A stretch of 60,180 bases of DNA, counting the filler, from Hausera hauseri (Eukaryota), in the NCBI GenBank assembly GCA_046269625.1. It is 11 parts of 11 records of this genome, joined end to end, with 100 filler letters (N's around TTAATTAATTAA, not from the genome) between each part and the next. Parts side by side here need not be neighbours in the genome. Positions count along the whole stretch, not along the records: positions 1 to 8,086 come from JBJURY010786534.1; 10 more parts are not named here. One strand, 5' to 3'. Positions 1 to 47,133 of this stretch are shown here, piece after piece (position 1 is the first letter of the stretch; every line of letters begins with the position of its first letter). The notes below the pieces were generated by a model. The model made no database searches, was not told the DNA's origin, and saw only the letters and a program-made list of their open reading frames with translations. A program made the translations under genes and the position numbers.

Positions 1-950
1 TAACAAATTCCCTCTTTACTTGCGTCTGTTTTAATTATAAATGGTAAATTAAAATCGGGATATCTTAGCACTGGTTCACTTGTTAGAATTTTCATTTCAT
101 CTAACGCTTTTTGTTCGATATTGGTTTATTTCCACTTGATCCCTTTTTTAAATAGTCGATATAATGGGCATTTATTTTCGATTTGTCTGGCACATAAGTG
201 GCATAATACCTACATAAGCCTAACCAATGTGTTAATTCTTTCTGATTTCGGGGTTCTATACAATCCGATATTTTGCTCAATAGATTTATCTGCCTTCGAC
301 CCTCCTTCTCCGACTATATGTCCAAGATAAGATACAGCATTCTGTGCCCATTTACATTTCTTGGGGTTCAGTTTTAATCCTGCCTGTTCTAATCGCATGA
401 AAGTATCTTCGATGTATTTTAGGTATTCTTCCGTTTTCGATGCTATCATTACGTCGTCTAAATAGGCGAACGCATGATGAAGTCCCATTAGCATTTTATT
501 CATCATCCTGGTGAAGATGGCTGAGCCGATTGTTATACCAAATGGCATTACATTAAATTTATAAACTCCGTCTTGCGTTTTAAACGCTGTTTTATAACGA
601 TCATCCTCAATTTCTACTTGCCATTATCCTGATTGTAAATCTAATGTGGTAAACCATTTTGCTCCTGATAATGTCTAATGCTTTCTTTACTGACGATAGC
701 GGAAGAGTATTTAGGGTTCGGTAATCTGTACAGAATTGATGTTTAGTAGTACCTTTTTTCTTGACCATGAGTATTGGTGAATACCAAGACCGGTAGCTTG
801 GTCGTATTATGTCGGCCTTCAACATACGTTCTACCTCTTTAGTTATTTCGGGACTTAGTGAATGAGGCGGTGGGTACCATTTAGTCATCTTTTGCTCTTC
901 CAAATCAATTTCATCATTGGAGCCAGGTTTCTTTTCTAATGGAATTGTTA
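1..950 (-). pseudogene. Gypsy reverse transcriptase and connection domain (copy 1)
   Basis: ORFs 607..903 (EVERMLKADIIRPS, SPILMVKKK) and 210..548 (MPFGI, FAYLDDVMIAS, LKLNPKKC, VSYLGHIV). Confidence 0.95.
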
Positions 951-1029
951 ACCTTAAGGTTTTTGCTCTACCTATATCTTCATTCTGGGCAATAATCGAC
1001 TTATATTTGCATAATAATTTGTAAAATTG

Positions 1030-1830
1030 ATATTATACTTCTGGTGCGAATTTAGTTTCGACATGGGGTGGAAACTCAGCATATTTGTATGATTTTTTCT
1101 CGATTGTTAATGCCGACACCTTACAAGTATGGCCCAATGTAGTATTGACATATAACCTTACGGGGGTTGGCGCGTTATTCACTAATCTGATCGGTACTCG
1201 ACCTGTCACCACTCTTGTCAAAATGTTACTATGATATTTGGGTTAACGTCTTCTTGTGGCTCCAAATATACCGGTTGATCGTCTTCTTCTTGGATTTGAG
1301 CATAAATTAACATTTCGGTTCTGGGCGGAATGTTTTCGTCGACGGGAAGCCATACTTCTAGCTTCCTTTCTTTCATTGTTTTAATCCCTCTTACTGGTCC
1401 GAGTTCAAGTAGTTTCCCAGTATGTAAATTTATTGCGATATTCGATAATTGTTTCAGTATATCGCATTCTAACACTACATTATCGGTTAGTTGATCCATT
1501 ATGGCAAACTCGTGTCGAAGAATTTGACCCACTTAAATTTCGGTTTGGGTTCTTGCCCGAAGGCTTCTATGCTGCTCGGATCCGACGACGACTCTGGCTG
1601 CAATTGTTTTCATAGTGTCGGCGGTATTGATTCTAACTTGATAAACGATTTTTCCGATCCGCTGTCGATTAAGGCATAGACTTCCCAATCCTCAATGGTA
1701 ACTTTTGTGAAGGGCTTTCCTTCCATAACTGTTCCATAACAACTTGCCACGTCCTTCGGTCGTTTAATTGAAGAAATCTTATGTCCGTTTATTGTTATTT
1801 CTGGTGATGAAATAATATTTTCTGTCAACT
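1030..1830 (-). pseudogene. Retropepsin-like aspartic protease and PR-RT spacer (copy 1)
   Basis: VYALIDSGSEKSFI in ORF 1610..1828, then ECDIL (LGCDIL in copy 2) and the IPPRTEMLI...VPIRLVN spacer common in Gypsy pol. Confidence 0.9.
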
Positions 1831-2399
1831 GTTTCAGTTCTTCGTTAGGGTATAAATCATTAATTGCTATGCTATCTGCATTGCCTCTAATTAATTGTTC
1901 TTGTACTATTGGATTTTGGAGCTATTCCGATCCTTGTATTCCCGAAACTGATCTTGACTCTATATTACGAGTTATTCTTTGTGAGTACAATATTTTATGG
2001 TCATCTTACGCTCATCGCTGATTAGTGATTTGCATTTTCTTCAATACTCCGTATTGTTTTTTTCCTTCATAAGGGTCTTCATAGCTGAAGGGTTTCCGAT
2101 GGATTTCCGATTTGTACAACGTCATCGATGTTTTGTCGCAATCTTCGTATATTGGAGCTGTCGGCGGCATGATGGGTAAAGGTGTCTTAATTACTGAATA
2201 CATTTTGTGTCTATTCGTCTGAGGATTGCTTCTCCCTTAGGCTCGTCATCATCTGAGTTATCTCTTCGTGTTGTTAATTTCTTAGCTTTGCGTTTCGATA
2301 GAAATATGGGTCTTGCTTGTCGTTTGTAATTATGGTAGCCGACATGGCGTTCAACGTCATTCTTCCACCGATTTTCTTCATAGGCTTTAAGCATTTTGC

Positions 2400-4295
2400 C
2401 GAAAGGTGTGATAATTGCGGTTAAAATCTTGCAAGAAAATTCTGTTAGCGTGAATATTTCGTATCCATTTATAACCGCCTGAATTACTGCCTTTATTAAG
2501 TGTACCAAGAAATAAATTGCTAAAAATCCCGATGCGGCTTGTCCAAAGATCAAAAATCGTCCCCATATTTTGTAGAGTATTTCTCTGGTCACCCGTTGGT
2601 AATGATTCACATTGAGTAAAGATTCCCATTTAGCCTGATGACGGGTATCGTCTACTACTTATGCCATGGCTCGATTTAATTCGTGTGTTCGCTGTCGTGG
2701 AAAAGCGAGAAATTGTCGAAAAGCTTCGATCTCTTGGTCTGTAAATGCCCTTTTGTGACGTATCCTGGAACTTGTCGTCGGTAATTTCTTTCGCTAAATT
2801 AGTTCCAGTTAGTTTTTTAGGAACGATAGTGACACCTCCGTTAAGTAAACTAACCCAATCCGTTTTGCTACGTCTAAACATTGGTTTACACAAACTTGCC
2901 TTACAATCCTTTAGGATTGTAGGTTGTGTTGCGTTGTCTATCAACAGCCTAGTGAGGGGCATGGCTAACCGTGGAGTGTTCTGATAGATCACAGGAAGCT
3001 CCTGTATACATCGTTTTTCTTTGACATTAATTGGTACGTCTCTTTTCTCGCACTCATGTCAGTAGAACTTTGCCCGTAACTCGACTAAANNNNNNNNNNG
3101 TTTTTCTTCAACGTTGATTAGTACATCTCTTTTCTCACATTCATAAGTCAGTAGAACTTTGCCAGTAACTCGACTAAAGATTCCTTCTCTCATGGGAATA
3201 ATCGGTGAGGCTAGCTCAGGGTTTACATAAATAAGAGCTAATTTTGTCCTCATAATCTCCGTATCCAATTTGCAATCATTAGTTATCATTTTATGGTATA
3301 GTTCGACTATCCCGACTTGTCCTTTATAATAAAAATAATCGTCCCGGTTTTCAGATAATCTTCAATTCGAATGTCCTTCGTTTCTAAGTTATGTTTTCGC
3401 GTTTATCTCCGTTTCTGCGACGAAAAACGCTTCAGTTAGTGATGAACATTACTGCTTCGCAACGTGAAATCATTTCTTTTTTATGAATTTCAACCCATGT
3501 TGATCAGAAATTAGTATTGTAGGTGTATGATGTTCTAATACGTTTTCACGTGTACTTGAACTGACGTCAGATTTGTCTAGGTATCTCTTTCCGGTGGTTT
3601 TATTAAATTTCAGTTCCTTAATCTTAATAAAATTACAGGCCTTTTCCGGAAGGCGGTTTCCATATTACGACAGAACGTCTGAAGGCACAGGTTCCGTCCT
3701 GTATGTGACATTTTTGATTCTCGGTATATAGCTTAGTGACTCTGGAACATCACTTTCTGGACTCGCATTTCCGATTCGTAAAAGTCTACGACTTTTACAT
3801 TTGCTTCTAATCCTTTTCCGGTGTCGTATTCTGTTCCACTACATTGGCCATTATGCATGTCTAACCTTCCGACTACTATATTATATGCTCTGATTATCTT
3901 CTCAGGCTGCATCTTTAGTTCCATACTATCTCATTTTAGTCTTCCGGTTTCTCGAGCCTGTTTGCAGTGTTGCCTTTCCAAATTCATTGGAATTGGAGGG
4001 GTCGTTGGTTTGGTTATCGAGGAATGTCCATGCATTAATCCACAGTGGAAAATGCTACGAGATCGTCTCAGCATACACTCCATGCCGTCAAAGGATATCA
4101 ATTCTTGTTGTTAGTATAGGAAGTAGCTTTTTTCCTTTGTCTCCAATTTGTGAGGTCTGGCATCTTCACATGCCTCTAGGTGCATTAGTGAATATATTTG
4201 TCTAAGCTTAAATCTATCACAGTCATAGGCAGTAACAGCACCCATCTGTTTTATTAGCATCATTATGGTGAGTAAGCTGATTAACCAACTAGATT
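2400..4295 (-). pseudogene. Chuvirus-like (Jingchuvirales-type) envelope glycoprotein, copy 1
   Basis: Hydrophobic signal WLISLLTIMMLIKQMGAVTAYDC; YSL..LEAC; GQCSGTEY; ITNDCKLDTEIMRTKLAL..NP; KGIY; C-terminal TM WGRFLIFGQAASGFLAIYFLVHLIKAVIQAVINGY. Motif order matches chuvirus G as I recall it. Confidence 0.8.
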
Positions 4296-7200
4296 CCTTC
4301 TTTCGGTTTTTATTATCCGTTGTTGTCAAGTTCCGTAAGATGTCTTCGAGTCTATTGTTACTACTGGTCTTTTTATCTTCTTCCTTATCAAATAATCTTG
4401 GCCAATTTACTTCGCACGGAAGCTTCCTAGCCGCTTTCCGCGCCAAGCTTGTAGCTCGATTGAATTCATTTTCTCGATATGGATTTATCTTGATTAGTAA
4501 GTACAATAATACTTTCCTTAGCTCTTCTGTCGTATTTTCTACCGTGATTTTCTCAACTACTGCGTCGTCAGTTAGATTACTTTTTGATAACTTGAAACGT
4601 GAACTTCTTATTATCCTAGCCGCGTTAAACATTGCTTTTTCTTTATCATCTAATGTATCTCCTCGAAGGCTCGAAAAATTTACGATTCATATTAAATTCC
4701 TTATTAATTCATTTAATTCTTCACTATCCGCACTGAAAGTGGGAATTGACATTTGTCTCAATTCTCTAATTAATTCACCGTTATAGTCCGCTTCTTCTCG
4801 GGTTTTTCTAGGCCTACCGACGGGGCGTTTTGGTTTTGGGACATTGGCCATTATTCCACTCAGTGGCACTAGATTCTTATCGTATTGTTCCTTGTCTTCA
4901 TCCGTTTGTAAATACTCGAAATACATCGCAGCATCTCTTACTCCCACGATTTGTCCTGCACATTGCTCCGTCTTAGCCTTACGCGTGGCTTCTGTCTGTT
5001 CATTAGCTATTATTACCACTATTCGATTTGTTTTGTCGGGGATAATTCCGACGTTTATTAACTGTTCTAAATCGTTGAGTATTCTACCTCTAAAGTAAAA
5101 TTTGTAATTTAGCTAATTTGTTCCGTCATTCTTTAATAACCATTCTCTTATGTCATTTACATGAGAATGTGTAGTTAACTCACATTCCTTTTCTTCCATC
5201 CACTCGGATGATACCATCACTTTCATCGTTACCTCAGGTTTAGCCCTCAAGATGTTCGCATACTTCTTTATCAAAAGTTTCGGCACCACGCTGTAAATTG
5301 TGTTCTCACTAGATAATTTAGTCAAGGTCGGAATAAGTTGTCTTAACTTATTTTCAAAAATGTTTACGTTAATTAGTTCAATCAATTCCTTTTCGGTTAG
5401 CGCTGAGTCCAGGAGCATCTCCACATTGAATTTCCTGTTCAGAGGATACGTTTCTATTTCATTTAGATGTACCGGAGTTACCGGATTTTCGGCCGTTATT
5501 GCTTCTAAATAAGCATCCCATTTGGGTTCATTCCCAATATCTGGAAGTCCATAGTCTGCTAGGGCTGTTTGTTCTTTGTACATTCTCTCGAATTTCTTTC
5601 AATTTTGGATGTATTTCTTTCATCTGCGTAATCCGGAAACCTATTCCGTTTCCACAGGCATATTGAATTATTTTCAATAGTTTGCCTAATTCACCAGAAT
5701 TGATGATCTCTCTCTGGTGATAATCGGTTAGCTCAATAATTACATCTCTGCCATCTTTGTACAAATTCTCGCTTATTTTTGATTTCTGATCCCGTAAAAG
5801 CGTAATTATTCCGGTAGCTTTCAAACTCTTACTAGTTCATCTAACCTTTTTGCTCTTTGTTCTGTTCTGATGCACGTTTCTTCGACTTGCTGTAATTTGG
5901 ACATCAATTGTCTCATCTTCTCATCATCAATCTCCGCAATTTCTACCAATAAGCTAGCCAATACATCTCATTTATAACTTTTGAGTCGGGATCTATTGTA
6001 TCCGGCAATTTCTTAACGAACTTAGATTCTTCGCAACTAAGGCGTTGGTTGTTTCTTATTTTCGTCAACTCAGTATGACAGTTCTGATCTGTACCGGCCA
6101 TCCATTCTTGTGGTTTATGCAAGAATCTTACCTCTTCAGTCAGAGCTGCTCTATGTTCTGGACAAATATCTAGGGTTTCGATATCTTGGATTGAAATCTC
6201 GTCAATAGATTTATCTGTTAAATGTTGGATTCCTTCTCGTCGGATGCTTCGTAACCTTGAGTAGAAATTGCAAGTCATATTTCGCTTTTCTGTAAAGTTC
6301 GTCTCTGATCATTTTATATCTTCCAATATCATTACTTCTTGCTTCTTCATAAAGTTTAGCTGTCGTAAGGCTTCAAATTGCATTCGGATATTTATCTCTG
6401 CTTGCATTGTATTTAAATTACGGGCACCTTCTTCTAGTTGTTTTTTTATAGTTGGTTCACTTTCTGGAAATTCTTTCTTACGGTCTTCTACTAATTTACT
6501 TAATCTCTTTATTAGTTCGTATTATTCTGACAATTGATTGGCGATTATTGGCTTTGCTAATATTGCTTTATCTAGCATCTTATGCATCCTTTAATTCGTC
6601 ATCTGGACCATTTCTGAAATTTATGATTTGGCTAACAGTTAAACTCGTCCTTATATTCATCGAATTCTATGATGCACGCCTTTATTATGAATCTGGTTTC
6701 TTCGTTATTCATTAACATAATTCGATTTTTCAAACTGCTGATTTGTGACCTTCTTTCATTCTGCATTTTAATACGATTTTATAAATTCGTGTATCGTCTG
6801 GGCTTGGTAAAGGCAATTTTTATCATCTCCATTAAGGGAGGAATATCTTTCGGATCTATACCCAATATTTCTAAATCAGCATCTTTTCGAATGCTAACCG
6901 ACTTTTCTCTAAGTTGGTTGATCATAGCATAACGGATTTCATCCGTCTTACGTTCTAAGTTACGGGCTACTCTCTTCAACTTGGGATTAGCTTCTAAGGT
7001 AGATAGTAACGTTTGTGCTTCAGCGACTTTTACACCGACACTATCTTCGTCTTTACTCCATCCTTCCAAAATTCGACTCCACTTTTAATCTGTTACTCTA
7101 ATTCATGGTTCCAATTCATCAACATATACCATGATACCTCTTCGGGTTGTCTTAATTTGATTGCTTTATCTAGCTTCCCTTCGTTACATAATTTTAAACT

Positions 7201-7990
7201 TTTATATAATTTCTCCGCAAATTGTTGTTCTTTACCAGATATATCTGCTTGTTTACTGATCTGTTTAAATCTTTCTAAATTGTGTTGAAGTAGCTCCGAA
7301 TCGTGACACCTAGTTCTTGTTCTCTTAACTCGTCGGAATTCTTCCACAAACGTCGAAATTTCCATTTTCTCCTATCAAGATCATTATTATCTTCCGTTTC
7401 TTCCTCACTAGTGGGAAGCGGACAAATTTCATTAATTTTGTCATTAGCGTTTATTATCTCTGGTGTTTTCAACGTTTCAAAAGTCTTTTTAGGGGTACTG
7501 GAAGTGTCTGAGGGTGAGTTGTCTCTAAAGGTAACAGTTTCTTCCGAGCTCTTTTTAACCGGAGACCGGGAACAAGCCTTAGATTTCCTCTTAGATGATG
7601 GGCTTCTACACTTATTCTTCGTTATTTTGAGAACTAATTCACTTTCGACTTCATTTATCGTTTCATCTGGGTTGTACTTTTAAAATTCTGCGTCTAAATC
7701 TACATGCTAATATGCCGTTGGTTTCTCTGACTGGGCTATTCCTTGGGGAATAGACTTTTTACGCGCCATATTATCAACGCTTGGTGCCCGTGCATATTCT
7801 TCCTCGGTTGGTGGTTCTCTTAGTCTATGATAGGCTTTCATTAGCCGTAATTTCTCTTCATTTTCTTTTCTAGCCTTTATGACTTGAGAATTAGCAGTTT
7901 TACCTAGATTCCTTACCGATCTACGTAGATCTTGCATTTTAATGATCAAGCTTATGTCACCTCACTTACCATAGATAGTTTCTAAATTAT
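4296..7990 (-). pseudogene. Unknown region X of about 1200 codons between Gag and the glycoprotein; charged, with UBL-like and AT-hook-like segments
   Basis: Chain of minus-strand ORF fragments (7707..7949, 7093..7365, 6779..7069, 5943..6278, 5528..5824, 5113..5583, 4687..5019, 4111..4632); the 3' half is conserved at protein level in copy 2 (12700-14329). Confidence 0.75.
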
Positions 7991-8039
7991 TCTTAATCAT
8001 GCTCGTTTTATTTGGTTCTGTAAACGCAACACTTCTAGG

Positions 8040-8086
8040 ATTCGGACATGACTTGGAGATGTGTCCCTCTTTGCCACATGTAAAAC
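8040..8086 (-). other. Gag nucleocapsid CCHC zinc knuckle
   Basis: Minus strand reads (T)GT TTT ACA TGT GGC AAA GAG GGA CAC ATC TCC AAG TCA TGT = CX2CX4HX4C; first base of the first Cys codon is in the gap. Confidence 0.88.
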
Positions 8087-8186: not shown

Positions 8187-9400
8187 AGATTTCCTTGATC
8201 CACCGGTTTATTCTACATGTCGGGTTGTTGACCCATCCTTTTAACGTTGTAACAGCCTTGTGATTGGTAACTATAATAATATTTTGCCCGTAGACGTAGA
8301 CATTAAAATATCTTAAAGCTTCTTTTACGGCTAATGTCTCTAGTTCAGTGACCGAATAGTTTTTTTCGCATTTTTTAAGCGATTGTTCTTCATATGCAAC
8401 TGGATGTTCTAATTCTTCACCTTCTCATTTCTAGGCCAATTAGTAACCAATTCCTTCTTTACTGGCGTCGGTTTTAATTATAAACGGTAAATTAAAATTG
8501 GAATATCTTAGCAATGGTTCACTAGTTAGAATTTTTTTCATTTCACCGAATGCTTCTTTTTCGATCTCGGTCCATTTCCACTTGATCCTTTTTTTCAATA
8601 GCCGATATAGTAGTGCATTTATTTTCGAGTTGTACGGCACAGAAGTGGCATGGTACCCACATAAGCCTAACCAATGTCTTAATTCTTTCTGGTTGTGGGG
8701 TTCTATAAAATCGGATATTTTGCTCAGTAAGGATTTATCTTCTTCGACCCTCCTTCTCCGACTATGTGTCCCAAATAAGATACAGCATTTTGTGCCCATT
8801 TACATTTCTTGAAGTTGTGTTTCAATCCTGCTTGTTCCAACCTTATAAGAGTATCTTTGATGTTCTTTAGGTGTTCTTCTGTTTTCGATGCCATAATTAC
8901 ATCGTCTAAATAGGCAAACGCGTGATCGAGTTCCATTAACATTTTATTCATCATTCTGGTAAAAATAGCTGGGCCGGTTGTTATACCGAACGGCATGATG
9001 TTAAATTCATAAACTTCGTCATGCGTTTTAAACGCCGTTTTATAACGATCATCTTCTTCAATTTCCACTTGCCAGTATCCGGATTGTAAATCCAGTGTGG
9101 TAAACCACTTTTGCGCCTGATAGTCTGTCTAATGCTTCCTTGACCGACGGTAGTGGGAATGAGTCCTTCATTATGAGCATGTTCAAGGCTTGGTAATCTA
9201 TACAAAATCGATTTTTAGTGGTACCTTTCTTCTTGATCATGAGTATCATTGAGTACCAGTACCGGTAGCTTGATCGTATTGTGTCGGTGTTCAACATGCG
9301 TTCTACCTCTTTGATTATCTCTGGCCTTAATAAATGAGGAGGCGGGTACCATTTCGGCATCTTTTGCTCTTCCAAGTCGATTTCGTCATTGGAACCAGGT
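8187..9400 (-). pseudogene. Gypsy RT and RNase H (copy 2)
   Basis: DSFPLP, LDLQSGYWQ, KTAFKT, YEFNIMPFGI, YLDD, TDAS, HPVAY, NYSVTELE, VTNHKA. Confidence 0.95.
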
Positions 9401-10330
9401 CACTTTTTTAAGGGAATAATTAACCTTAAGGTTTTTGCTCTACCTATATCCTCTTTATTTTGGGCAATAATCGATTTATATCTGCATAGTAATTCAGGAA
9501 ACTGACAGTATGCTTCTGGTGAAAACTTTGTTCCAACATGAGGTGGAAGCTCGGCATATTTGTATGGTTTTTCTTCCATTGTTATTGCCGACACTTTATA
9601 GGTATGACCCATGTAGTAGTATTGGCATACAACTTTACCGGGAGTTGGCGCATTATTTGCTAATCTGATTGGTACTTGTCCCGTCGTCACTCTTGTTAAT
9701 ACGTTACTGAATATGATATTTGGGTAAATATCTTCTTGTGGCTTAAAGTAAACTGGTTGATCGTCTTCTTCCCGGATTTGAGTATAAATTAATATTTCGG
9801 TTCTGGGTTGGATATTTTCGTCGACGGGGATCCATACTTCTCCTAGTTTCCTTTCCTTCATTGTTTTAATCCCTTTCACTGGTCCGAGTTCCAGTAGTTT
9901 TCCAGTATGTAAGTTTATTGCAATATTGGGTAATTGTTTCAGTATATCGCAACCCAATACTACATCATCGGTTAGTTGATTTATTATAGCAAACTCGTGT
10001 CGAAGAATTTAACCCATTAGTTGAACTAAGGGACTCCACTTAAATTTTGGTTTACATTCTTGCCCGAAGGCTCCTATACTGCTTGAATCTAACGACAACG
10101 CTGGCCGTAGTTGTTTTAGTAGTGTTGGTGGTATCGATTCTAACTTGATAAACGATTTTTCCGATCCAGTGTCAATTAAGGCGTAAATTTCCAAATCTTC
10201 GGTGGTAACTTTTGTGAAGGGCCTTCCTTCCATAACTGTTCCAGGGCAACTTGACACGTGCTTTGGTCGTTTAATTGAAGAAATCTTATGTCCGTTTATT
10301 GTTATCTCTGGTGATGACATGATATTTTCG
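9400..10330 (-). pseudogene. Aspartic protease and spacer (copy 2)
   Basis: IYALIDTGSEKSFI in ORF 10009..10494; GCDILKQL in ORF 9400..9957. Confidence 0.9.
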
Positions 10331-10899
10331 GTCAACTGTTTTAGTTTTTCGTTAGGGTATAAGTCTTCTATGCTGTCTGTTTTATTCCTAATTAAGGGTT
10401 TTTGTACTATTGTATTTTGGAGCAATTTCAATCCTTCTATTCCCAAAACAGTTGACCTTGACTCTATGTTTCGAGCTATTCTTGGTGAGTACAATATTTA
10501 TGGTTGTCCTCTGCTCGCCGTTTGTTAATGACCTGCATTTTTTTAATACTCCATATTGTTTTGTCCTTTCATAAGGGTCCTTATAACTGAAGGGTTTCCG
10601 ATGGATTTCCGATTTGTATGACGCCATAGATGTTCTATTGCAATCTTCATATATTGGAGCTGTTGATGGGATGATGGGCAAGGGTGCCTCAATTACTGAA
10701 TACATTTTGTGTCTATTTTGTCTGAGGATCGCTTCTTCTCCCTTAGGCTCGTAATCATAGGAGTTATTTCTTCGTTTTGTTGATTTCTTAGCTTGCAATT
10801 TGATAGAAACGTTGGTATTGCTCGTCGTTTCTAATTGTGATAGCCGACATGGCGCTCAACGTCATTTTTTCATCGATTTTCTTCGTATGCTTTAAGCAT

Positions 10900-12695
10900 T
10901 TTACTGAACGGGGTAATAATTGCAGTTAAAATCTTGCAGGAAAATTTTGCTAGCGTAAATATTTCCTACCCATTTATGATTGCTGGGATTACTGCTTTTA
11001 CTAATTGTACTAAGAAGTAAATTGCTAAAAATTCAGGTGCGGCTTGTCCAAAAATTAAAAATCTTCCCAATATTTTATAGAGTATTTCTGTGGTTACCCG
11101 TTGGTAATGGTTCGTGCCAAGCAGGAATTCCCATTTAGTCTGATAACGGGTATCTTTTACTACTAATACCATGGCTCGCTTTAATTCATGTGTTTACTGC
11201 CGTGGAAAAGCGAGAAATTGTCGAAAAGGTTCGATTTCTTTTGGTCTGTAAATACCCTTTTGTGATGTATCCTGGAACTTGTCGTCGATAATTCCTTTTG
11301 CTAAATTGGTTCCAGTTAGCTTTTTAGGAATGATAGTGACACCTCTATTAGGTACGCTAACCCAATCCGTTTTACTACGTCTAAACGTTGGTTCAGCCAG
11401 ACTTGCCTTACAATACTTTAGGATTGTGGGTTGTGTTGCGTTATCCAACAACACCCTAGTGAGGGGAATGGCTAACCGTGGAGTGTTTTGATAGACTACA
11501 AGAAGCTCTTGTATACATCGTTTTTCTTCCACATTAATCGGCACCTCTCTTTTCTAGCACTATTATGCTAGTAGAACTTTGCCAGTAACTCGACCAAAAA
11601 TTCCTTCTTTCATGGGAATAATCGGTGAGCCTAACCCAGGGTTCGTGTAAATAAGAGCTAGTTTTGTCCTCATAATCTCCGTGCCAAATTTGCAGTCATT
11701 AGTTATAATTTTATGGTATAATTCGGCAATCCCGACTTGTCCTTTATAATAAAAATAATCGTACCGTTTCTTTAGATAATCCTGTGTGTCTAAGTTATAC
11801 GTTTTTGCGTTTATCTCTGTTTCTGCGATGAAGAACGCTTCATAGTTGATGGTGAACATTACTACTTCACAACGTGAGATCATTTCTTTTTTATAAATTT
11901 TAATCCATGTTGATCAGAGGGGTATGATGTTCTAATACGTCTTTACGTGATCTTGAACTCATGTAAGATTTGTCTACGTATCGTTTCCCGGTAGTTTCAT
12001 TGAATTTCAGTTCCTTCATTTTAATAAAATTACACCCTTTTCCAGAGGGCGGTTCCCATATGGCTAAGGAACTTCTGAAGGCGCAGGTTCTATCCTGTAT
12101 ATGGCATTTTTGGTTCTCGGTATATAGCTTAGTGAAGCTATGGAACATAACTTTCTGGACTTGCATTTCCAATTTGTAAAAGTCTACGACTACTACATTT
12201 GCTTCTAATCCTTTTCCGGTATCGTATTCTGCTCCGCTACATTGCCCGTTATGCACATCTAACCTTCCGACTACTATTTTATATTCTGTAATTATCTTCC
12301 CAGGCTGCGTCTCTAGTTCCATACTGCCCCATTTTAGTCTTCCGGTTTCTCGGGCCTGTTTACAGTGTTGCGTTTCCAAATTCTTGGGAATTGGAGGGGT
12401 CGTTGGTTTGACTATTGAAGAATGTCCGTGCATTAATTCACAGTGGAAAACGCTACGAGATCGTCTCAGCATACACTCCATGCCGTCCAAGATTATCTTT
12501 TCTTGTTGTTGATATAGAAAATAACTCTTCTGCTTTGTTTCCAATTTGTGTGATCTGACATCTTCACATGCTTTTAGGCCCATTAATGAATATTTTTGTC
12601 CAAGCTTAAATCTATCGCAATCGTAGACGGTGACAGCGACCATCTATTTTATCAACATTACTATGGTGAGCAAACTGATTAATCAATTAGATTTA
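10900..12695 (-). pseudogene. Chuvirus-like envelope glycoprotein, copy 2
   Basis: ORF 11900..12643 VYDC...YSL...C...RSVFHCELMHGHSS...CKQARETG...NGQCSGAEY...NVVV; 11563..11883; 11194..11544 RCIQEL.V...PLTRVL...KGIYRPKEIEPFRQFLAFP; TM in 10966..11172. Confidence 0.82.
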
Positions 12696-14429
12696 TTCTT
12701 CATATTATCCGTTGTCGTCAAGTTCCGTATAATGTCTCCGAGTCCATTGTTACTATTGGTCTTTTTATCCTCTTCCGTATCAAACAATATTGGTCAATTT
12801 ACTTCACACGAAAATTTTTTGCCGCCTTTCGCGCCAAACTTGTAGCGCGATCAAATTCATTCTCTCGATTTGAATTTGTCTTGATTGCTAAGTACAATAA
12901 TACTTTCGTAGCTCTTCTGTCCTATTCTCTACCATGATTTTCTCAACTATTGCATCATCAGTTAGGTTACTTTTTGACAGCTTGAAACGCGAACTTCTCA
13001 TTATCCTTGCTGCGTTAAATATCGCTTTTTCTTTTTCATCTAATGTATCTCCCCAAAAACTTGAATAATTTACGATACCTATTAAGTTCTTCATTAACTC
13101 GCTTAATTCTTCATTGTCTGTGTTAAAGGTTGGAATAGACATTTGTCTCAGCTCTGGAATTAATTCTCCGTAATAGTTAACCTTTTTTCGGGCTTTCTTG
13201 GGTCTTCGGAATGGGCGTTTTGGCCTTGGAGCATTGTTTGTTATTACACTTAGTGGCACTAGATTCTTATTATATTGTTCCTTGTCTTCATCCATCTGTA
13301 AATACTCGAAATACATAGCCTCATCTTGTACTCCCATAATTTGCCCTATACATTGTTCCGTTTTAGCCTTTCTCGTGGCTTCTTTTGTCTGTTCGTTGGC
13401 TATTATTACTATTATCCGATTTGTTTCGTCGGAAATAATTCCGACGTCTATTAACTGTTCTAACTCGTCGAGTATTCTTCCTCTGAAGTAAGATTTGTAA
13501 TTTAGCTCATTTATTCCGCCATTATTTACTAACCATTTTCTTACGTCCTTCACGTAAGAGTAAGTGGTTAGTTCCCATTCTTTTTTGTTCATCCACTCGG
13601 ATGATATTATTATTTTTTTGTTACCTCAGGATTATCCTTCAAAATTTTCGCATACTTCTTTATTAAAAGTTTCGGCACCGTGCTATAAATGATGTTTTCA
13701 CTGAATAATTTAGTCAAGGTCGGAATGAGTTATCTAAGCTTATTTTTGGTAATATTTACATTAATTAGTTCAATCAAGTCCTTTTCGGTTAACACTGAGT
13801 CCAAAAGCATCTCCACATTGAATTTCCTGTTCTTCGGATACATTTCTATTTCATTTAAGTGCATTGGAGTTACGGGATTTTCGGCCGTTATTGCTTCTAA
13901 ATAAGCATTCCATTCTGGTTCGTTCCCAATATCGGGAAGTACATAGTCTACTAGGGATGTGTTCGTTCTTTGTACATTTTTTCGAATTCCTTTCAATTTT
14001 GGTTGTATTTCTTTCATCTGCGTAGTTCGAAAACCTATTCCATTTCCGCAGGCATCCTGAATCATTTTCAGTGCTTCGCCTAATTCATTAGAATCGATAA
14101 GTCCTTTCTGGTGATAATCGGTTAGTTCAATAATTACGTCCTTTTGCCATCTCTGTACAAACTCTCGCTTATTTTTAATTTCCGATTCGGTAAAAGCATA
14201 TTTGTTTCAGTAGCTTTTGAATTTTAGCCTCGTTGCTCTTTGTTTTGTTCTGATGCATGTTTCTTCAACTTGTTGTAATTTGGGTATCAATTGCCTCATC
14301 TTCTCATCATTAATCTCCGCCATTTCTACNNNNNNNNNNNNNNNNNNNNNNNNNNNNNNNNNNNNNNNNNNNNTTAATTAATTAANNNNNNNNNNNNNNN
14401 NNNNNNNNNNNNNNNNNNNNNNNNNNNNN

Positions 14430-17877: not shown

Positions 17878-18810
17878 TTATTTCATTTCATTCTCAAATT
17901 CTGTGGTCTCTAATTCGGTTGTTATTCCCGTATCGTTAAATGGTGAAATCTTAATAAAGATGTTAGAACCATTACAAATTTCATGAAGTGAAGCGATGCC
18001 AGCTCCATTACACTTCGTATAATCAACGGTTTTAGTATCCAGAAAATAATAGACTTCTGTATCCAATCCAATGTTATCTAATGTAATCGCAATCCCATAT
18101 TTATCTATGGAGTCAATTCGATACTTCTCTTTCAAGACCTTATTCGTACTCTCTTTAAGTCTCATTTCTATATCAAGGTCAATACACCGTTCATTATCAA
18201 TAAAACAAGGCCACTCAACTTCATCAAACGTGATCATTGATATGTGGTCATCTAAAACAACTATCATAATCATATTCCCAATATTCGTATTGAACCTGCG
18301 ATCGATTTCGCGTTGTTTAACAAAATTTGTTCGGTCACGGTCGACAATTTTACCACAGAGAAAACGTAAATTTTCATCGTCAACACTACTTTCGACGCCC
18401 TTTACCTTTAAATTTGGTTTTCGTCTCGTAGCACAAACAAGCAATTCTAAACAAGAGAATGTTCCGCAAGTTCCGTTTTTGAAATCGACATTGCATTCCA
18501 CTCCATTTACTTCTTCAACACATTTGTACTCACTATATACCTTTTTTATTTTTTCCCTATTTCCGTTCAACTGTATGGCATTACTTAGTATAAACATATG
18601 AATACTATCCACTTGACAGTAATGTTGTTCATCAGGAACGGAATGCAATACCTTTTCAGCCATAAATTTCCTTGCTCTTCCATTATATGTCAATTTCATA
18701 ATTTGTACCTTTTCTACGGCGGATTTCTTAGTAAGCATCCTTTGTTGATTTTTCATGTATAGAACTACCTCCTGTAGTCTGATACAAGGTTGTCTATTCA
18801 TTAAGGACAT
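17878..18810 (-). CDS. Hypothetical protein, 310 aa, intronless
   Basis: Long ORF in AT-rich DNA; no recognised motif. Confidence 0.5.
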   Translation of the reverse strand: MSLMNRQPCIRLQEVVLYMKNQQRMLTKKSAVEKVQIMKLTYNGRARKFMAEKVLHSVPDEQHYCQVDSIHMFILSNAIQLNGNREKIKKVYSEYKCVEEVNGVECNVDFKNGTCGTFSCLELLVCATRRKPNLKVKGVESSVDDENLRFLCGKIVDRDRTNFVKQREIDRRFNTNIGNMIMIVVLDDHISMITFDEVEWPCFIDNERCIDLDIEMRLKESTNKVLKEKYRIDSIDKYGIAITLDNIGLDTEVYYFLDTKTVDYTKCNGAGIASLHEICNGSNIFIKISPFNDTGITTELETTEFENEMK

Positions 18811-19219
18811 CTCACAGATTTCACCATAGAATGATTTATTTTAACGTTAGGTATATCCTCTGATAAAATTGCATTACTCTCGAGTTTTTCGGTTAATTTT
18901 GTAGAATTAACATCCACTAAATATTCACTACTATCAACCTTCACCTTGTTAGCTTTTTCCGCTTCGTTCAATTTAATACATACCAATTCCGAACTTGTTT
19001 GATCATTGTAAACAATTTCAGGGGGAATTAGTTTATTGTTCCTGTAAACATGAATCCCTAAAAATTCTCCTTTATAATTGTATACAAGGCTATGAATTTT
19101 TTCAACGATTGCAGGATTAAAAATTTCGAAAATGTCATTTTTATACGGCTTTTCTCTTGATCGCGCCCAATAGGTGACAGAATCAACGAGTCTGTCAAAC
19201 GCAGTTTTACCGAGTCTCG

Positions 19220-20293
19220 CTAAGTATTCGGCTGTTTCTTTATCTTCAATATCGTCAAACCACCACCACCAATAACAATTAACTCATTTTTGAGAATAAC
19301 GACTTGGTTAGTTTTCATTCGTGCACTCTCTTCATCATGCGATTCAATTGACGTAGCAACGAAATCCAGTTTTTTATAATACTTTTTGTTTAATGATGAT
19401 TCAGTCTTTTCATAAATTTCTTTAGACGAAACATCAGCAATAGTACAATCATCAGAGTCGTTATCATAGTCAACAACCTTATTTTTTGAAACTTTATCAT
19501 TTTTCAATTTTTGAAACCACGGCTTAATTTCTACACACAACTTGATTATAGCTGGCGTTAAATTATCGCACCGAAACTCTTCCAATGCGACTGTCAGACT
19601 TTGGTATTCTGCTTTTAAATTGTCGATTTCCTTACGACGGGACGATATGTTTTTCTTGTCAGCTGTATTCTGTTTCTCAACCGCATACAAACGTAATTTT
19701 AATTCGGATGTTTCACAACGTAACGAATCCAAACATTCCACATTGCCCTTTAATGCCTTTTCTAAACGTTCCTTCAACATCGTCGAGTCGTACACAACAA
19801 AATGTTGAAATACTGTCAATTGCATCCATAATTCGTCTTTTTTCAATTTACACTTTTTCAATATTTTTAACGTTTTGATTTGCGCTTTTTTATAATTTGC
19901 AGCAAATGCCACTTGTTGACACTCGATCAACTGCTGATGTAACTTATTGATGTATTCTTTTAACATAACGACTTTATTCTGCAGTTGTATTTTAGAGTTT
20001 TTCATTTCAACGGTGTATTTACAATAACAACCTACAACTGCGACTCTTCTACTGAGTAAAATTTTCGTATGCAACTGTTCATATAGTCGACTGTCATCAT
20101 CTCTCAATATTCTAATTTCATCCATTTTCCCATTGACAAATCTGTATGCTGTTGTTTCGGTTGGATTATAATTGGTCACGTCTTTGGACTTTTTCCGTGA
20201 TTTATTACATTGTACATAAAGCTGTCCCAATGTTTCTACTGATCGTAAATTCTGTGACTGCAACTGCTCATTGCACAAAACCAAATGATCCAA
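19220..20293 (-). CDS. Hypothetical coiled-coil-rich protein, 357 aa, intronless
   Basis: Long ORF with heptad-like K/E/L/Q content; no recognised family. Confidence 0.5.
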   Translation of the reverse strand: MDHLVLCNEQLQSQNLRSVETLGQLYVQCNKSRKKSKDVTNYNPTETTAYRFVNGKMDEIRILRDDDSRLYEQLHTKILLSRRVAVVGCYCKYTVEMKNSKIQLQNKVVMLKEYINKLHQQLIECQQVAFAANYKKAQIKTLKILKKCKLKKDELWMQLTVFQHFVVYDSTMLKERLEKALKGNVECLDSLRCETSELKLRLYAVEKQNTADKKNISSRRKEIDNLKAEYQSLTVALEEFRCDNLTPAIIKLCVEIKPWFQKLKNDKVSKNKVVDYDNDSDDCTIADVSSKEIYEKTESSLNKKYYKKLDFVATSIESHDEESARMKTNQVVILKNELIVIGGGGLTILKIKKQPNT

Positions 20294-20480
20294 TTCATAG
20301 AAATGTTCAATTCTTCCTTTTATGACAGAATTTAATAAGAAATTTTTATTATATTTGGATTACTTTAGATTGAACAAATTNNNNNNNNNNNNNNNNNNNN
20401 NNNNNNNNNNNNNNNNNNNNNNNNTTAATTAATTAANNNNNNNNNNNNNNNNNNNNNNNNNNNNNNNNNNNNNNNNNNNN

Positions 20481-21639: not shown

Positions 21640-24600
21640 CTTTAATGCCCATACGTCCAACTCTTACTTCGCCCCACCCGATTTTGCTTATCATCGTTAC
21701 ATGACAAAGAGACTTTAGCACTAGTTATTGTATACAGCTAGTGCTCAATTGATGGGATGATCGTTTGAGACACAACAGCCACTGATTGTCCTCCTCCTTC
21801 TGCTGCTACTGCTTCATATATGCGGCGATAATTACCGTGACCGATTTTCGTCTGCCTCAGCTGAACTTATTTTTCCTGCATTTTCGGTCCACAGTCCGTC
21901 AGAAGATTGTGGCACTTTGGGCGTAGTAATATCCATTTCCGATGCCGGACACGATCTTCACTTTCATCCTTGAAGCAGCCGATTTTATTGGTGGTCGCAC
22001 TGCTGTACAACGGATGATCCGGTAAGTAGTTGGACGTGTCCAGTAATCCATCTGACTGCATTTGCTGCAGTAGCTGTTCGCGATTGACATTTTTCAGACG
22101 TAGGAAAAAACTGTCTGTGTCATCGGCAACTATGTCAATATTGCATCCTTCAAACATTTTCCGGTAACGTGCCAAGTCGTAATACTGCAGTTCACTCATC
22201 CGCAACTTGTTCAGGTCCAATACCACTTGTCCAATTTAACTTGGCCGATCCAAAGCGACTTTTTTCCTGTTTAACAACACCGCAACCATCAATCGGCAAT
22301 GTGCATTGACCACCGAAACTGTAACTTGCTGGTACACGTGACCAGCTCTTTTCCAAGTTACAACCACTTTTTCAGTTTCTTCACTGTTTTTCCATACAGG
22401 GAATTGTTTTTCAACTTGTAGTAATCCTTTTCGAACTTTGTACAAGGTGCGGTTCGTTTCTCCGATTTTTCATCTATGCACGCCTTAAATATTGGAGCCT
22501 GAGCAAATCGAATTGCACGATGCAGCTGTGTGTCGCATACACCGAGCTGCATGTAAAACTGTAGCAGACGCCAATGGACCACGTAGTTCAACTTCGGTTC
22601 ATGAGTCATGAGCAGTTTCTTCACTTTTAAGCTGGGCGGACATTGGTTAAATGATGCGACCGGTAAATCGTCCAAAACATCATGCAGCTCATCTGGTATC
22701 TCAAGATCGACCTCCATCAGGTATCCAACTGAGCCTGCCATGTCTGCTCGTGGTAGGTTGACCATTATGTCGTCCAGATCTTGTCTGCCGACTACCCATT
22801 CAAATGAACCGTACGAAAAGGGTTGCGAAAGCGCCCAGCCATAGAGGTTATTAATATCAATATACAGCAGTGATATAATATCGGTAGCACGGACCTGATG
22901 CTTGTTGACAAATGTCATGCAGTCGTGAATACCAACATGAAACAGCCGATAAATTTCCGGGTTTTGCAGCAGCTCGATGTCTTGATCCAGTAACATTAGA
23001 GCTGACGCCCAACTCATTCCCGGTATTGAATAAAAGTTGAGTGGCCTCAGCCTATCTTCAGCCAAAGCTTTTTCTCGAAACGCTTTGAACACATCGGCTA
23101 ATAAGTACACGTCCAGTTTAAAATACTGGAGCATGTAATCCAACATGTTTCTACAGCCGAGTTCTGTACAACACCTCTGTTCTTTCCGGTATTCATCCTC
23201 TGCAATACCTGTCCATCACAGAGGTAATTCCTATGCTGTCCAGAGTCGCTCATATGATGTTGCAAACTCATATGGAAATATGCCTTTGCTGTGTGCAATA
23301 TGTGCATGGAACTGCGTCAATGCTATCGGCACATCTGGCAAGGCATTTACCACCTTTGACAATGATTCATTGAGAAATTTCAATGAATCAAGGAAACGTA
23401 CCTGGAATCGCTTTACACGTGCCGACAGCCATAAGTATTTTTTCATTGTCGTTGTGATTATGGACAGTTCCCAGTGCGGAAAGCCGTTAATAGCCCATTT
23501 GAGAATATGGTGAGAGTCATAACCTCGGAAATTATGAAAGATCACCGGCAGGAATTGTTGCACTCGCCTTGCTAAATTGCATGAATTGCATGCTGCTCCC
23601 AGGTATCAACCGGTGAAATTGTTGTGATTCGGTACGAGCCGTTCCTGTTCATCAAACGGTATTATTTTGTGGCACAGATAGCATCCATCGGTGACAGAGA
23701 AAAGCAACGGTTGATATTTCTCTGCCCAAATCAATGTCTTATTGCAATTGTTGAGATACTACGACGAGATTTCCGTTTCCACTATTGTTTCCAACAGCTG
23801 CAGAAAATCACGTACATGGTTCCAACCATGGAAAACGTAATACTGCGGTTGTTTGGCGGCTCTTATTAGAACTAGCAACATACCGACGGTAATTGGAACG
23901 TGCTTTAGATCGTATACATTGTGCCATGGTAGAATTGCTTCGATATCGGCATACACGACATATGCCGGACTGTCCGTTTTAGACCAATCACTGAATGTGA
24001 GCTCCTTTTTGACGGGCATGACGTACATTGTTGTCCTTGATGCGTTTTGCCTGCATTTTGTGACATGTTTCTTCCACGTTCTTTCCGATCTGAATCCATG
24101 CAGACATATAGGACACCATTAGCATCGTATTCGTTGTTTAATGAACTGGTCATGCTCCATGTTCAACAGTCTATCCAGATTTGTCACTGCTACGTAATGA
24201 AATTTTTCGGCCTGCTCCAACAGCAACAAAATTACCGAGCGTCCATTCAGGTTCCGACTACGATGAATTATGTCCACATGGGGTTCTTATAAATTTCTCC
24301 GTCTTTCGGTATTTCAGCTATTGTGTTGTACCGGAAAACGTTGATTGACAGCGTCGGATTACGCCCGAAAAAAGCTGGCATTCATCAAATTGCAATTGGG
24401 CAAAATAATGCCCATACTGATTTGGACGATTTGCGTGATATTTGTTCACTTCGATGTACTTCAGTACAACCAGAATACTGCATATAAAACAGTATTCGTC
24501 GCCGTCTTCAGTATTTTGTACATTCATTACAGCCAGAGACTGATTAGAGATACAGGTGTCGGTATGAATGACCGTCCAGACAAATACACCACGTCATTCG

Positions 24601-25800: not shown

Positions 25801-26719
25801 TAAAAAACTTTCCCACGCTCAATGCTTTCTTTCCCTGGCGGGGGCTTGGGGCAATGCACTCCTTTCCATCTACTGACGATAAGTTTGTTACGTCGGTTGC
25901 TAACGAATTGGGTATTGCTGTTGATGCATTGTACAGAGTTCTAGCCGAAATAAATCGGCTTTTGCGGAGAATTCCGCTGGCCGTTAGCGAATGAGAATCG
26001 ATGGTTCTGTGGGCCTCGTTCTGCAGTGGTGTAACGGAATCACCGGAGACTTCCTGGCTGCCGGGATTTAACCAGTACAGTCTATACGAAGAACCGTTAT
26101 GTGACGGGGAAGGTAATTGTCATGATGAAGAAGGCGTAAACATCCTATACGCAACTGAGTCCACGTATATAATACGTGTTAGCACGGTGTCCGCCGATGG
26201 GAAATTGCAGTTGGGTTTGCCGACGATGGGGTGTCCGCAGTTCGTCACGAGAACATTGTGTCTGATAATTACAACATTACAATTGGTAAATGCTACTGCC
26301 GATAAAAACACAATAGCACAACTAGTATAGGAATGAATTGAAAGCATTACAAAGTCGAAACAAATATCCTCAACACTTGAATAAGGAATTATTTCGATAT
26401 AACTGCATCCAGGTGTCTTTTTAATTTGAAAACTGAGTTCGTTCAAGATTCCTTCGTTTGAATCCAACTGAATCCTCTCCAACGAAGATTCTTCATTTTC
26501 AGTTCCATTTTTGCTGGAGAAAACCTTACGTGTCTAACTTATAAATTGTTCACGGAAATCTGAATTATGGAGTAAAAGTATCAGTCTAGCTGTTTCAGAG
26601 ATGTGTTCATCGTTTCGGCAGTTACGAGCGACCCATTTATTAAACGAACCAAAATACATTTTAAATATGCGGTCTGTTTCCGATATAATATTACAAATCC
26701 TAATCACGGGAACTCTGTT

Positions 26720-27800
26720 ATTCTGCTTATCCCTCTTGAACTTATTCAGAATTGCGAATAATTGTGCCTCGTTTTGTTTAGATTTTTTTAAAATGTTAAT
26801 TACGACGGACTTCGAAACTCCATCGTATGGACTGTTTTGTTGACCATATTTTCTGATATACGTATTCAAATTAGTCGACAAAATCAAATCAGTAAGTTGC
26901 CTCATTTCTTCAAAAACCAGAATAATTGTATCAGGAGAAACTCCGGTAACTGGAATATTGCGAGAAATTTCCACAAGACATTTTATATCAGCCGATAATT
27001 GTTGCACGAACTTTCTCAATCTGCGCGGCTCATATTCAAGGAATTTACGAACTTTTTCTTGATATATTTGCATGATAACAAGCATGCGATTTGGGCTAGT
27101 CGAGCCGGCAGATTTGTGCAATATTCAAACGTCGTCCGTAAATAAGAAATAACATTGGAATTAAATTCCGAGGGAGGTGCAATGTCGCTAGTGGTAACTG
27201 AATTAATTTTACGATTCAGGAAATGGATTTCGGGGTTGCCATTAGACGAAGAGTGTGAATTAATTTCGACATATTTTCATGAAATATGTGATCAAACATG
27301 ATCACAAACAAAATGTTTGTGGAATGATTTAATTGACCTTTCAATTGCTTTTGATGCAGTTCCAAATTATCAGTAAATTGTTTCGACTTTTTATATGGTC
27401 TCGAAAAGTCTGGTAAATACTGAGTACCATCCAAGAGAAAGATAAGCTTTTAGGACAGGATAACGAGAGAATATCTGGCGATTGAAAACTAAGGTATAAC
27501 TCAACAACCAATTCTATTTTCGAATGACGGTTGACAATGATAGCAGAATAATCTTCACCTTCGAAATTTTCTTGGGATTGCTTTAAATATTCGTACGAGA
27601 GGAGCCTTTGATACTCTTTTCTTAGACTATTATACAACTGTTTAAACCCGGCAACATTAAAACCAAATAATCTCATTGTCTTTCCAAAAGGTACACGATT
27701 GTTTTTGAATTCTAGCAATGTATAAATGTCCTTAAATGTCAGTTTGTAGTTGATGTTGCTTACAATGGTTTCCAGTATAAACAAAATAAGGTCGTCATTA
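26720..27800 (-). pseudogene. EXOC6: Exocyst subunit Sec15/EXOC6-like decayed fragment
   Basis: TMRLFGF...LRKEYQRLL...FEGEDYSAI; FSWMVLSIY; STNILF; VQQLSADIKC...PVTG...DTIILVFEEMRQLTDL...NTYIRKYGQQNSPY...KFKRDKQ are colinear with the Sec15 C-terminal half; split across frames. Confidence 0.7.
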
Positions 27801-29489
27801 TGGAGTCGCACTTTAATATCTGGTTCAAGGTATTTGGGTAACGCAACACAAAAGTAAATAAGAAACGTTGGATCAAATATAAAACTCGATGTAACAAATA
27901 TGACAATATTAAACCAATTGAAATATATTAAAAAACATTGAGTGAGCCAGGTAAAACACAGTTCATTAATGAGATATCCACATATTTGGAAAGATGAATA
28001 AACCGATGGACATTCCGTTGTTACAATAAGTTTAATCCCATGGTCTGTGAAGTGTAACATGAGATTTGGATCACGATGTAGAGCCTTATAAGGCCATAAA
28101 ATTACTGATTCTTTACATTTGTTAAGTGTTAAAAAGTTCTAGACATGATTTTTTTAATATAACATTCCTCGTCTAGTCTTTGTTGGTAATAGTAAATTTT
28201 GTGAGGATCCTTCTCTCACTAACCCCAGCCCAACAAGCAAATCGTGATGCAAGAAACAGACACAGGGCGCCTTAAAGACAAAAACCAGACTCACTAGTGA
28301 GCATCTGTATTCCGAAGTCCAACGAATCCAATCGTTTGTTTCAACAGGATCAGAACTGTACATTAACTGACACCAATTGTAGTAATTTCGTAATATATCG
28401 GCTGTTGTTACTGTCCCTTTTACGTAAATAATAAGAGTAAAATGTTCAAAATTTATAACCAGGTTTTGTTGGTGCATTTAAATGTTACACATAAGATTTC
28501 TTTGCACCAACAAAATGTTATAATGATTTGGTACACCACAACATTTTAAACATATGGTAGGTAATGATATGTACTTCCGTTCCTCGATTTTCATCAAATT
28601 ACGAAAATGAAAAGGCGGTTTCAACTGATGAAGATTTATTTTGCACATTCAATTAAACTTTTTCAACTTTTCTTTTTGGATATCGTGTAATTAAAACAAC
28701 ACATTTTTAACACAGTACCACAGAATAATGAATCCGACCTCCGTCCATGAACCCCCACGGCTGCTTCGCATCACGATTTTCATGCTATTAGTCAGGATTA
28801 TTAAATCCTTTTAAAATTTCTAATTCATCTGTTAATTATAAAATTAGTGAAAAAGTTTTCACATTCATCTACAATTTATTCAAAAATAAAGCTTTTACAC
28901 AGCAGGAGTATAGAACACTGAAAACAAAACTGACCACTTAAACAAAGAGATCCAATATCCAATCACGAAGTGAAGCTCATTGATAAAATCAACTGCCAGA
29001 ATATAAACATCTTTATACAAACTCATGACTTTGGACCAATTACATTTGTGATAAACATAAACCGAACATGAAGTACAGACGAATAAGGAAAATATTTTGC
29101 ATAATGACTTTGATAGAAAATAAATACAAATTTGGCAATGACCAGTTTATTTACAATGGAAACAGTTAACTGAAATTGTCATTAATAATCGAATTTCAAT
29201 TGAAGTCCGCGAGAAAAGCCGTAATGGTGCAAAATTCCATCAGACACGAATCGCGAACGAGTGCTTTTTTGGTATTTTATAAGCCAGGCGGCATGGCAAG
29301 AAATTTACATTTTCTTGAACAAAAAGGATAAAATTTTCTAGCAAAATATATGCAGTTGGTATGTCCAACAAATATCAGGCATTTGGCCATAAATTAGATT
29401 CGCGCCTTGTGCAAGCTAATCAATGTCACATTTCTCGGTTATAAAGCATAATTCTTTTTTTGCAACACACAAATGTGATAGGCACTATA

Positions 29490-45435: not shown

Positions 45436-45599
45436 GCCCGAGAATTAAATTCGCGATTCACGTTACTCAACACGTTGTCTTCTTTCGGTTCCCGTAAATT
45501 ATTATGAATGCAAACCATATTTGCCCATTTGTTAGATGTATGGAAAAATTGCACAAAACTCACTTTAGAAGCAGGCAATAATCGAGCGGAGGAAGTGTA

Positions 45600-45950
45600 G
45601 GCACCACCCAGGAACAAGGAACTTCTCATACCGGCTTTTCTCGTCGATAACAAGTGATAGAATATATGAAATGATCTTTCTGTTTCTGTTGATACATTCA
45701 ACATTCTTTGAGATTTCTCGAGGATGCCCGAATGAGAAGCTGAAAGTTTTGTTTCGTGTTATGCGGTAAACGTCAACAATCCCTTTCAACAATATTATCC
45801 CCTTATCGGTACTAAATACCTCTACTTTAAGAGGTTCCGTCTCCACTTGATAAATGACTCGAGAAACGTCAGTAATTAACTTTCAACATTTAGCTAGACA
45901 TCTTAACCATTGTTCGAGCATATTTTCGCGACGACTGTGTTGTCATATTT
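45600..45950 (-). pseudogene. Myosin motor-domain fragment
   Basis: ILEKSQR......ERSFHIFYHLL resembles the myosin LLEKSRV...ERNFHIFYQLL motif. Confidence 0.55.
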
Positions 45951-47000: not shown

Positions 47001-47133
47001 TATGATTGGCTTTAAGCCATTGTAAATAAAACTGTAACCAAGTGCGCCTCGAATTGGTTTTATCAAGAAAAATTCTGAGCAGGAAAGATTTGAAGATGTA
47101 GTTGGTGTGGGGTCGCAGGACGATGACCAGATC

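Follow-up and report, generated by a model that had tools for sequence, protein, structure and literature searches.

Two decayed copies of a putative Ty3/Gypsy-type enveloped retroelement of the Burro kind in Hausera hauseri

Introduction

Burro, or GYPSM1, described from planarians in 2019, has its Env joined in frame to Gag and Pol and placed between the two (PMC6431247). It is present in many copies and consists of one open reading frame with a CCHC knuckle, a ubiquitin/SUMO-like domain, a mononegavirus-type Env and PR-RT-RH, together with a cargo of MATH/TRAF, BIR and ankyrin domains, a Bcl-2-like domain just before Env and a dUTPase-like region between PR and RT (PMC6431247). The element is giant, reaching 30 kb, and has LTRs; decayed fragments are known in Dugesia japonica (PMC6431247). 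Passages of PMC11410931 bring nothing further on how Burro is built. GAG-ENV-POL errantiviruses with a gB-type Env occur in nematodes, bryozoans and flatworms, and env and pol are flipped in the nematode NERVs (PMC13524379). The main text of PMC13524379 does not use 'polyprotein' or 'fused', and therefore single-ORF status is not drawn from it.

Two decayed copies of a multi-copy element are described here, in a window (the whole stretch of DNA analysed) of 60,180 nucleotides from Hausera hauseri that joins 11 contigs through N44-spacer-N44 blocks. With good confidence these can be read as remains of a Ty3/Gypsy-type enveloped retroelement of the Burro or GAG-ENV-POL kind, whose ancestors likely made a Gag-cargo-Env-Pol polyprotein.

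The two copies and their setting

Both copies lie on the minus strand, copy 1 on the scaffold at 1-8086 and copy 2 on a separate contig at 8187-14329, and they are about 85% identical over aligned columns. Pfam matches on this strand follow the order zf-CCHC, Monjiviricetes_fusion, RVP, RVT_1 and RT_RNaseH_2 (Table 1), and the gB/Monjiviricetes-type Env is placed between Gag and Pol. By its sequence the element is assigned to the Ty3/Gypsy type, from the order of the last three domains and from RT identity to integrase-bearing relatives (pairwise, 42-54% to four relatives with integrase after RNase H). The two contigs end within RNase H, and the Gag capsid lies past the end of the copy 1 contig.

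The 77-nt duplication flanking the 10-N gap in copy 1 is likely an assembly overlap. An earlier note on this DNA had estimated a polyprotein of more than 2700 codons; about 2,750 codons are covered once the 87-nt gap-plus-duplication (3013-3099) is removed. The copy alignment also bears out its statement that 5950-8086 is present in copy 1 only. One sequencing run carries the stretch and no RNA dataset is among the carriers listed, an observation that is silent on expression and splicing.

What is the host? The best matches of a KDM5 gene from another contig are mostly parasitic flatworms. A tree of 35 rows with no planarian places it, on a long branch, with parasitic flatworms and apart from other animals (99/98). 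Judged from this single long-branch gene, the host is probably a free-living flatworm.

Table 1. Features of the element and their positions in the window
Feature	Positions	Strand	Basis
PR-RT spacer, reverse transcriptase, RNase H start	1..1529	-	Pfam RVT_1 E 8.6e-21
Retropepsin protease, catalytic motif at 1672	1530..1860	-	Pfam RVP weak, tblastn
Cytoplasmic tail and protease linker, frameshifted near 2216 in copy 1	1861..2479	-	dN/dS 0.13 and 0.23
Predicted Env transmembrane segment	2480..2540	-	hydropathy
Broken Env ectodomain, class III (Monjiviricetes fusion / gB-type)	2560..4230	-	Pfam PF24664, relatives' Env profile
10-N scaffold gap, ~77 nt duplicated on both sides	3013..3099	.	alignment
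A-rich run, frame change in both copies inside Env	3470..3485	-	copy 1 ~3480, copy 2 ~11890
Predicted internal signal peptide, adjoining AYDC and preceded by a basic patch	4231..4300	-	hydropathy
Helical region, candidate Bcl-2-like domain (weak)	4237..4578	-	phmmer from P0003 iE 0.0016
Basic GRP motif	4804..4830	-	comparable motif in 3/14 relatives
Helical module and ubiquitin/SUMO-like domain, without C-terminal di-glycine	4984..5397	-	three-relative profile, fold match
Decayed coding cargo of ~670 codons, without family match, in copy 1 alone	5950..7961	-	break count vs shuffles
In-frame stop, 40 codons past knuckle, frame goes on	7962..7964	-	single copy
Gag CCHC zinc knuckle	8040..8086	-	Pfam zf-CCHC E 2.5e-5
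Copy 2: end of X, Env, TM, PR, RT, RNase H	8187..14329	-	alignment, Pfam

Support for a single reading frame from X to Pol

The copies were compared pairwise, with coding phase assigned by hand for each gap-free segment and with 3435-3508 and a few short segments excluded. The 1,844 codons aligned in this way contain 12 in-phase stops in copy 1 and 14 in copy 2, and no position is a stop in both; off phase, 246 of 335 stops are common. With dS between the copies at 0.4-0.6, dN/dS is 0.21 in X (the region between Gag and Env), 0.23 in Env, 0.13 in TM plus tail, 0.23 in the linker and 0.18 in Pol. Values of 0.13-0.23 in all five regions indicate that all of them evolved as protein during the divergence of the two lineages.

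The earlier note had proposed that the lesions of the two copies are complementary. This holds for the in-phase stops, but one frameshift in the Env ectodomain is present in both copies. The places that it had singled out read as follows. A stop-free stretch, 4111-4686, leads from X over the hydrophobic segment into AYDC at 4230; the copy 1 stop at 4113 has no copy 2 stop in the aligned phase, and where copy 2 has stops at 12685 and 12646, copy 1 has none. The ORFs at 2012-2203 and 1610-1828 are in the same frame, the copy 1 stops at 2014 and 2008 being absent from copy 2; a further in-phase stop of copy 1, at 1924, had been missed, and copy 2 is open there. From X through the signal segment into Env, copy 1 has a single frame interrupted solely by point stops.

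Does this frame continue into Pol? The Env tail is frameshifted near 2216 in copy 1 and near 10794 in copy 2, within 75 nt, and the two shifts offset each other. The copy 2 ORF that had been put forward as a bridge across the Env tail is seen, but it is not decisive alone, as each copy has its own frameshift, and because these are offsetting the Env/Pol question needs other family members. These came from run X1, which may be related to the assembled sample and from which 4,845 contigs were placed on 1400-3089 (40 of 305 differences listed, 15% threshold). Among the differences listed, at least 11 contigs (depth 365/638) differ from copy 1 through a frameshifting indel at 2216, this indel covering 57% of the depth there; at least four of the five copy 1 in-phase stops in 1400-3089 coincide with majority differences. 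The states of copy 2 are absent from the listed differences at the places matching 2289, 2042 and 1996, although an absent row is no proof of sameness. The copy 1 Env/Pol break is a variant among family members: where the earlier note had proposed to look for a stop or frameshift fixed at Env/protease, the break at 2216 varies among X1 family contigs. The A-run at about 10540, where it had proposed to look for a conserved slippery site or readthrough codon, proves by the copy alignment and the listed X1 differences to be a copy 2 lesion and no recoding site.

The non-shared stops, the uniform purifying selection, the family members at Env/Pol and stop-free relatives together support X, signal peptide, Env, TM, linker and Pol having been in one reading frame. 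The parts themselves are recognizable. PF24664 matches six ORF pieces (best E 1.1e-15), and the Env profile of the relatives matches at iE 5e-75; after AYDC, Env has 535 codons vs 537-552 in relatives. Pfam RVP is weak in both copies (E 0.027 in copy 1, 0.0034 in copy 2), and PR-RT spacing is 402-421 codons vs 403-412 in relatives. The Env and protease ORFs had no match in word-index protein searches (2,000-residue limit).

Natural relatives

Relatives are the 40 matches in a search of 1.84 billion representatives, gene calls on contigs rather than observed proteins; their identity across the query is 23-31%. One carries the label of a Flavobacteriaceae MAG protein, probably through mis-binning; among viral contigs searched, no relative was found. 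Fourteen were scanned, 13 picked from the 40 for length or X match, plus the cluster member P0042. Env is followed by protease in one ORF in 9/14, five of the nine also including RT, and a CCHC knuckle lies upstream in the same ORF in 5/11 of those with an xYDC motif. P0002, P0010, P0013 and P0017 carry a knuckle, an internal signal and an xYDC Env, with protease after it in P0010, P0013 and P0017; in P0010 and P0017 one ORF runs from knuckle to integrase. Distances are greater in the present element: about 1,286 codons from knuckle to Env vs 233-625 residues in five relatives, and about 289 from TM to protease vs 133-188. No relative found has an X more than about half as long as that seen here.

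Modules upstream of Env

The helical plus ubiquitin-like module was found with a profile of three relatives, which matches at 4987-5397 (iE 7e-14); P0002, P0013 and P0041 carry it, the last of these without Env. A model of the copy 2 ORF is poor overall (pLDDT 44), with a beta-grasp at residues 5-75, and against the PDB it gives 22 matches to ubiquitin-like folds at E<=0.001, ubiquitin and SUMO among them. The model of the homolog P0041 agrees with a ubiquitin-like fold (Z 12.8, rmsd 1.5 over 76 residues). No folds but ubiquitin-like and capsid ones were listed in fold searches with it, which barely covered its Bcl-2-like part, and a PDB sequence search with the X ORF gave nothing useful. As modelled, X contains a ubiquitin-like domain, as Burro does. 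Since the domain has no di-glycine end, a role in binding is more probable than one as a cleavage tag for a host protease.

The GRP motif at 4804-4830 is one that we take to be AT-hook-like. For the candidate Bcl-2-like region, a four-sequence profile found no match in this element, and Pfam Bcl-2 appears on relative P0004 only (E 0.00096). A signal-like segment precedes xYDC in 11/11 relatives shown. Hydropathy and motif position suggest that the segment at 4231-4300 would act as an internal signal peptide, which would leave Pol on the cytoplasmic side.

Gag and the unmatched cargo

The knuckle is in frame with ORF 7707-7949 across one stop at 7964, as the earlier note had it. Between 5950 and 7964 the least-broken path has 11 breaks vs 27.3 +/- 3.1 in shuffles (0/200 as low) and keeps the frame of the knuckle down to about 7370; the plus strand of the same stretch has 14 breaks on its least-broken path. 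This stretch is decayed coding DNA. Given that, and the knuckle in the same ORF in relatives, Gag was likely in the same frame as X, a join seen in one copy of the family.

What the cargo encodes was sought in several ways. No useful Pfam or Atlas match was returned for 5950-7960, an Atlas search with 6782-7084 gave weak low-recognition matches only, and one with residues 390-790 of P0002 gave no usable match. An internal repeat in the cargo was not significant (6/300 shuffles as good, 21 pairs tested). Eight splice-donor-like hexamers occur in the contig, and the one at 7969 was put down to chance.

Alternative explanations

Could Gag have been made separately? The stop 40 codons after the knuckle would then be ancestral, X-Env-Pol would be reached by leaky read-through, and Gag would be in excess. 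The stop at 7964 sits where retroelements commonly end Gag, the frame continues beyond it, and a single polyprotein would otherwise yield Gag, Env and Pol in equal amounts. But breaks number 5.5 per kb in the Gag/X stretch, in line with 7.0 in Env and 3.8 in Pol, so that a point stop is expected there. The knuckle frame is read through in five relatives, no strong structure lies downstream (z -1.0), and the context of the stop is unlike the usual leaky-stop motifs. A separate Gag is unlikely. A separate Pol is harder still to uphold: in both copies the Env frame runs on to a common stop near 2191 and is shifted equally relative to the Pol frame, as it would be if Env ended there and Pol were a separate, overlapping ORF. 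Against this, X1 family contigs differ from copy 1 at 2216 and the listed differences are without the break of copy 2, most of the scanned relatives have Env fused to protease, and the linker has been under selection. An Env ending near 2191 is accordingly regarded as highly improbable.

The frameshift inside Env asks for an explanation of its own. Both copies shift frame at the same A-rich run despite their synonymous divergence, and the codons downstream stayed under selection, with which an inherited dead lesion is hard to square. The run might then serve for programmed recoding, by which full Env plus Pol would be limited and a secreted Env fragment made. Stoichiometry would thereby be solved: most ribosomes would stop mid-env, giving Gag, cargo and the secreted fragment, and a minority would go on to full Env and Pol. 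Among the 27 incomplete relatives, four stop or cease to be homologous no more than 13 columns from the site, a window set after the data were seen. Yet two of these four sit on contigs of 1.2-1.5 kb, and another, P0025, stops at the site while its 94% identical cluster-mate P0164 reads through; 18 of the 40 relatives span the site unbroken. Runs also slip often, a short frameshift separating the copies at 3/16 runs of six or more, and a double independent slip at one run has, by our own estimate, roughly a 15-30% chance. No conserved structure lies downstream of the run (z -1.8 and -0.4). Programmed recoding here is quite unlikely, a little more so than a separate Gag; if family-wide, the shared frameshift would bear on the balance of Gag vs Env/Pol.

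Proposed processing and significance

The preferred reading remains an ancestral Gag-cargo-Env-Pol polyprotein. Of the Gag-X-Env-Pol product that the earlier note had proposed, the X-to-Pol frame stands, on stops, selection, X1 and relatives; the join of Gag to X is seen in one copy, with a stop. How would such a chain be processed? From where the motifs lie and from what is generally known of ER translocation, the following can be proposed. Gag and cargo would be synthesized in the cytosol. The Env ectodomain would then be directed into the ER by the internal hydrophobic segment, which would hold Gag-cargo at the membrane up to its cleavage by signal peptidase near AYDC. At the TM, transfer would halt and the chain would return to the cytosol, where protease would detach PR, RT and integrase from the tail of Env. 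The proposed processing resembles that of flavivirus C-prM.

The element adds a divergent, decayed lineage to flatworm-type elements with a class III fusogen inside one polyprotein, and its Gag-to-Env cargo is about twice that of any relative found. It touches on how such elements balance Gag vs Env plus Pol, and on the role of unmatched cargo.

Comparison with known systems

NERVs are not known to carry a long UBL-bearing cargo, and they differ also in having a nematode host. These elements, the subject of Sacco et al. 2022 (J Gen Virol 103:1739), reportedly have a continuous gag-env-pro-pol ORF. The errantiviruses of PMC13524379, as far as described there, share with this element a Ty3/gypsy Pol, a gB-type Env upstream of Pol and an ectodomain between a signal peptide and TM or two TMs; they are intact, whereas the copies here are decayed.

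Novelty of the layout, which the earlier note had implied, does not hold, as the layout was already described for Burro (PMC6431247). Searches returned no named Burro sequence, and the likeness is drawn through the description of its layout. Unlike Burro, this element has about 670 codons of unmatched cargo, and the contigs here are 6-8 kb. The MATH/TRAF, BIR and ankyrin domains of Burro have no Pfam match in this broken, partial sequence; its dUTPase-like region has none at E<=1, PR-RT spacing being as in the relatives, and its Bcl-2-like domain has a weak phmmer match. Like Burro, the element has a knuckle, a ubiquitin-like domain, an in-frame Env before Pol and many copies. By this layout it is placed beside Burro, and it would work as Burro does.

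The shared frameshift and the cargo

The only frameshift found to be common to both copies, the two decayed Burro-like Ty3/Gypsy elements, lies in an A-rich run within the class III fusion protein Env. It may represent a hotspot, an assembly error or a recoding site. Upstream of Env, part of the cargo of copy 1 has no family match; a candidate internal repeat within it is weak (6/300 shuffles) and is not significant over 21 pairs. In natural relatives found by protein search, several protease-like motifs are present C-terminal to the Env TM: three each in P0005 and P0013, and five in P0042, which is 4,844 aa long and also has ankyrin repeats.

Coordinates of features in the window
Feature	Position (strand)	Content
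Env frameshift, copy 1 / copy 2	3470-3485 / ~11886-11894 (-)	A-rich run
Unmatched cargo, copy 1	5950-7960 (-)	~670 codons
Candidate internal repeat	~6700-6950 vs ~6000-6270	
Second Gypsy-type element	41491-46124 (-)	protease, RT, RNase H, integrase zinc finger
Family B DNA polymerase fragment	22358-23215 (-)	DNA_pol_B_2, E 1.6e-7
Additional repeat family	35782-36703, 38745-40277, 48727-49685	67-72% identity, partly inverted
Long ORFs in series	17878-20359 and 46273-47792 (-)	160-379 aa
BROMI_C/Sec15_C ORF	26534-28138 (-)	intronless
KDM5/JARID1 demethylase fragment	52631-55531 (-)	single open stretch, >730 codons

Other mobile elements and host-type genes

The second Gypsy-type element is distant, and its upstream ORFs have no clear family; nor did a Pfam search assign one to the long ORFs in series. 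The polymerase fragment is of the protein-primed type and is perhaps part of a Polinton-like element. The additional repeat family is spread over two contigs.

Of the host-type genes, BROMI_C is followed by the start of Sec15_C within one ORF (Pfam), and Sec15_C carries on in the next. Two host genes are thus oddly joined here; the product may be a chimeric retrocopy, or else cargo that was captured. The demethylase fragment is divergent and groups towards flatworms.
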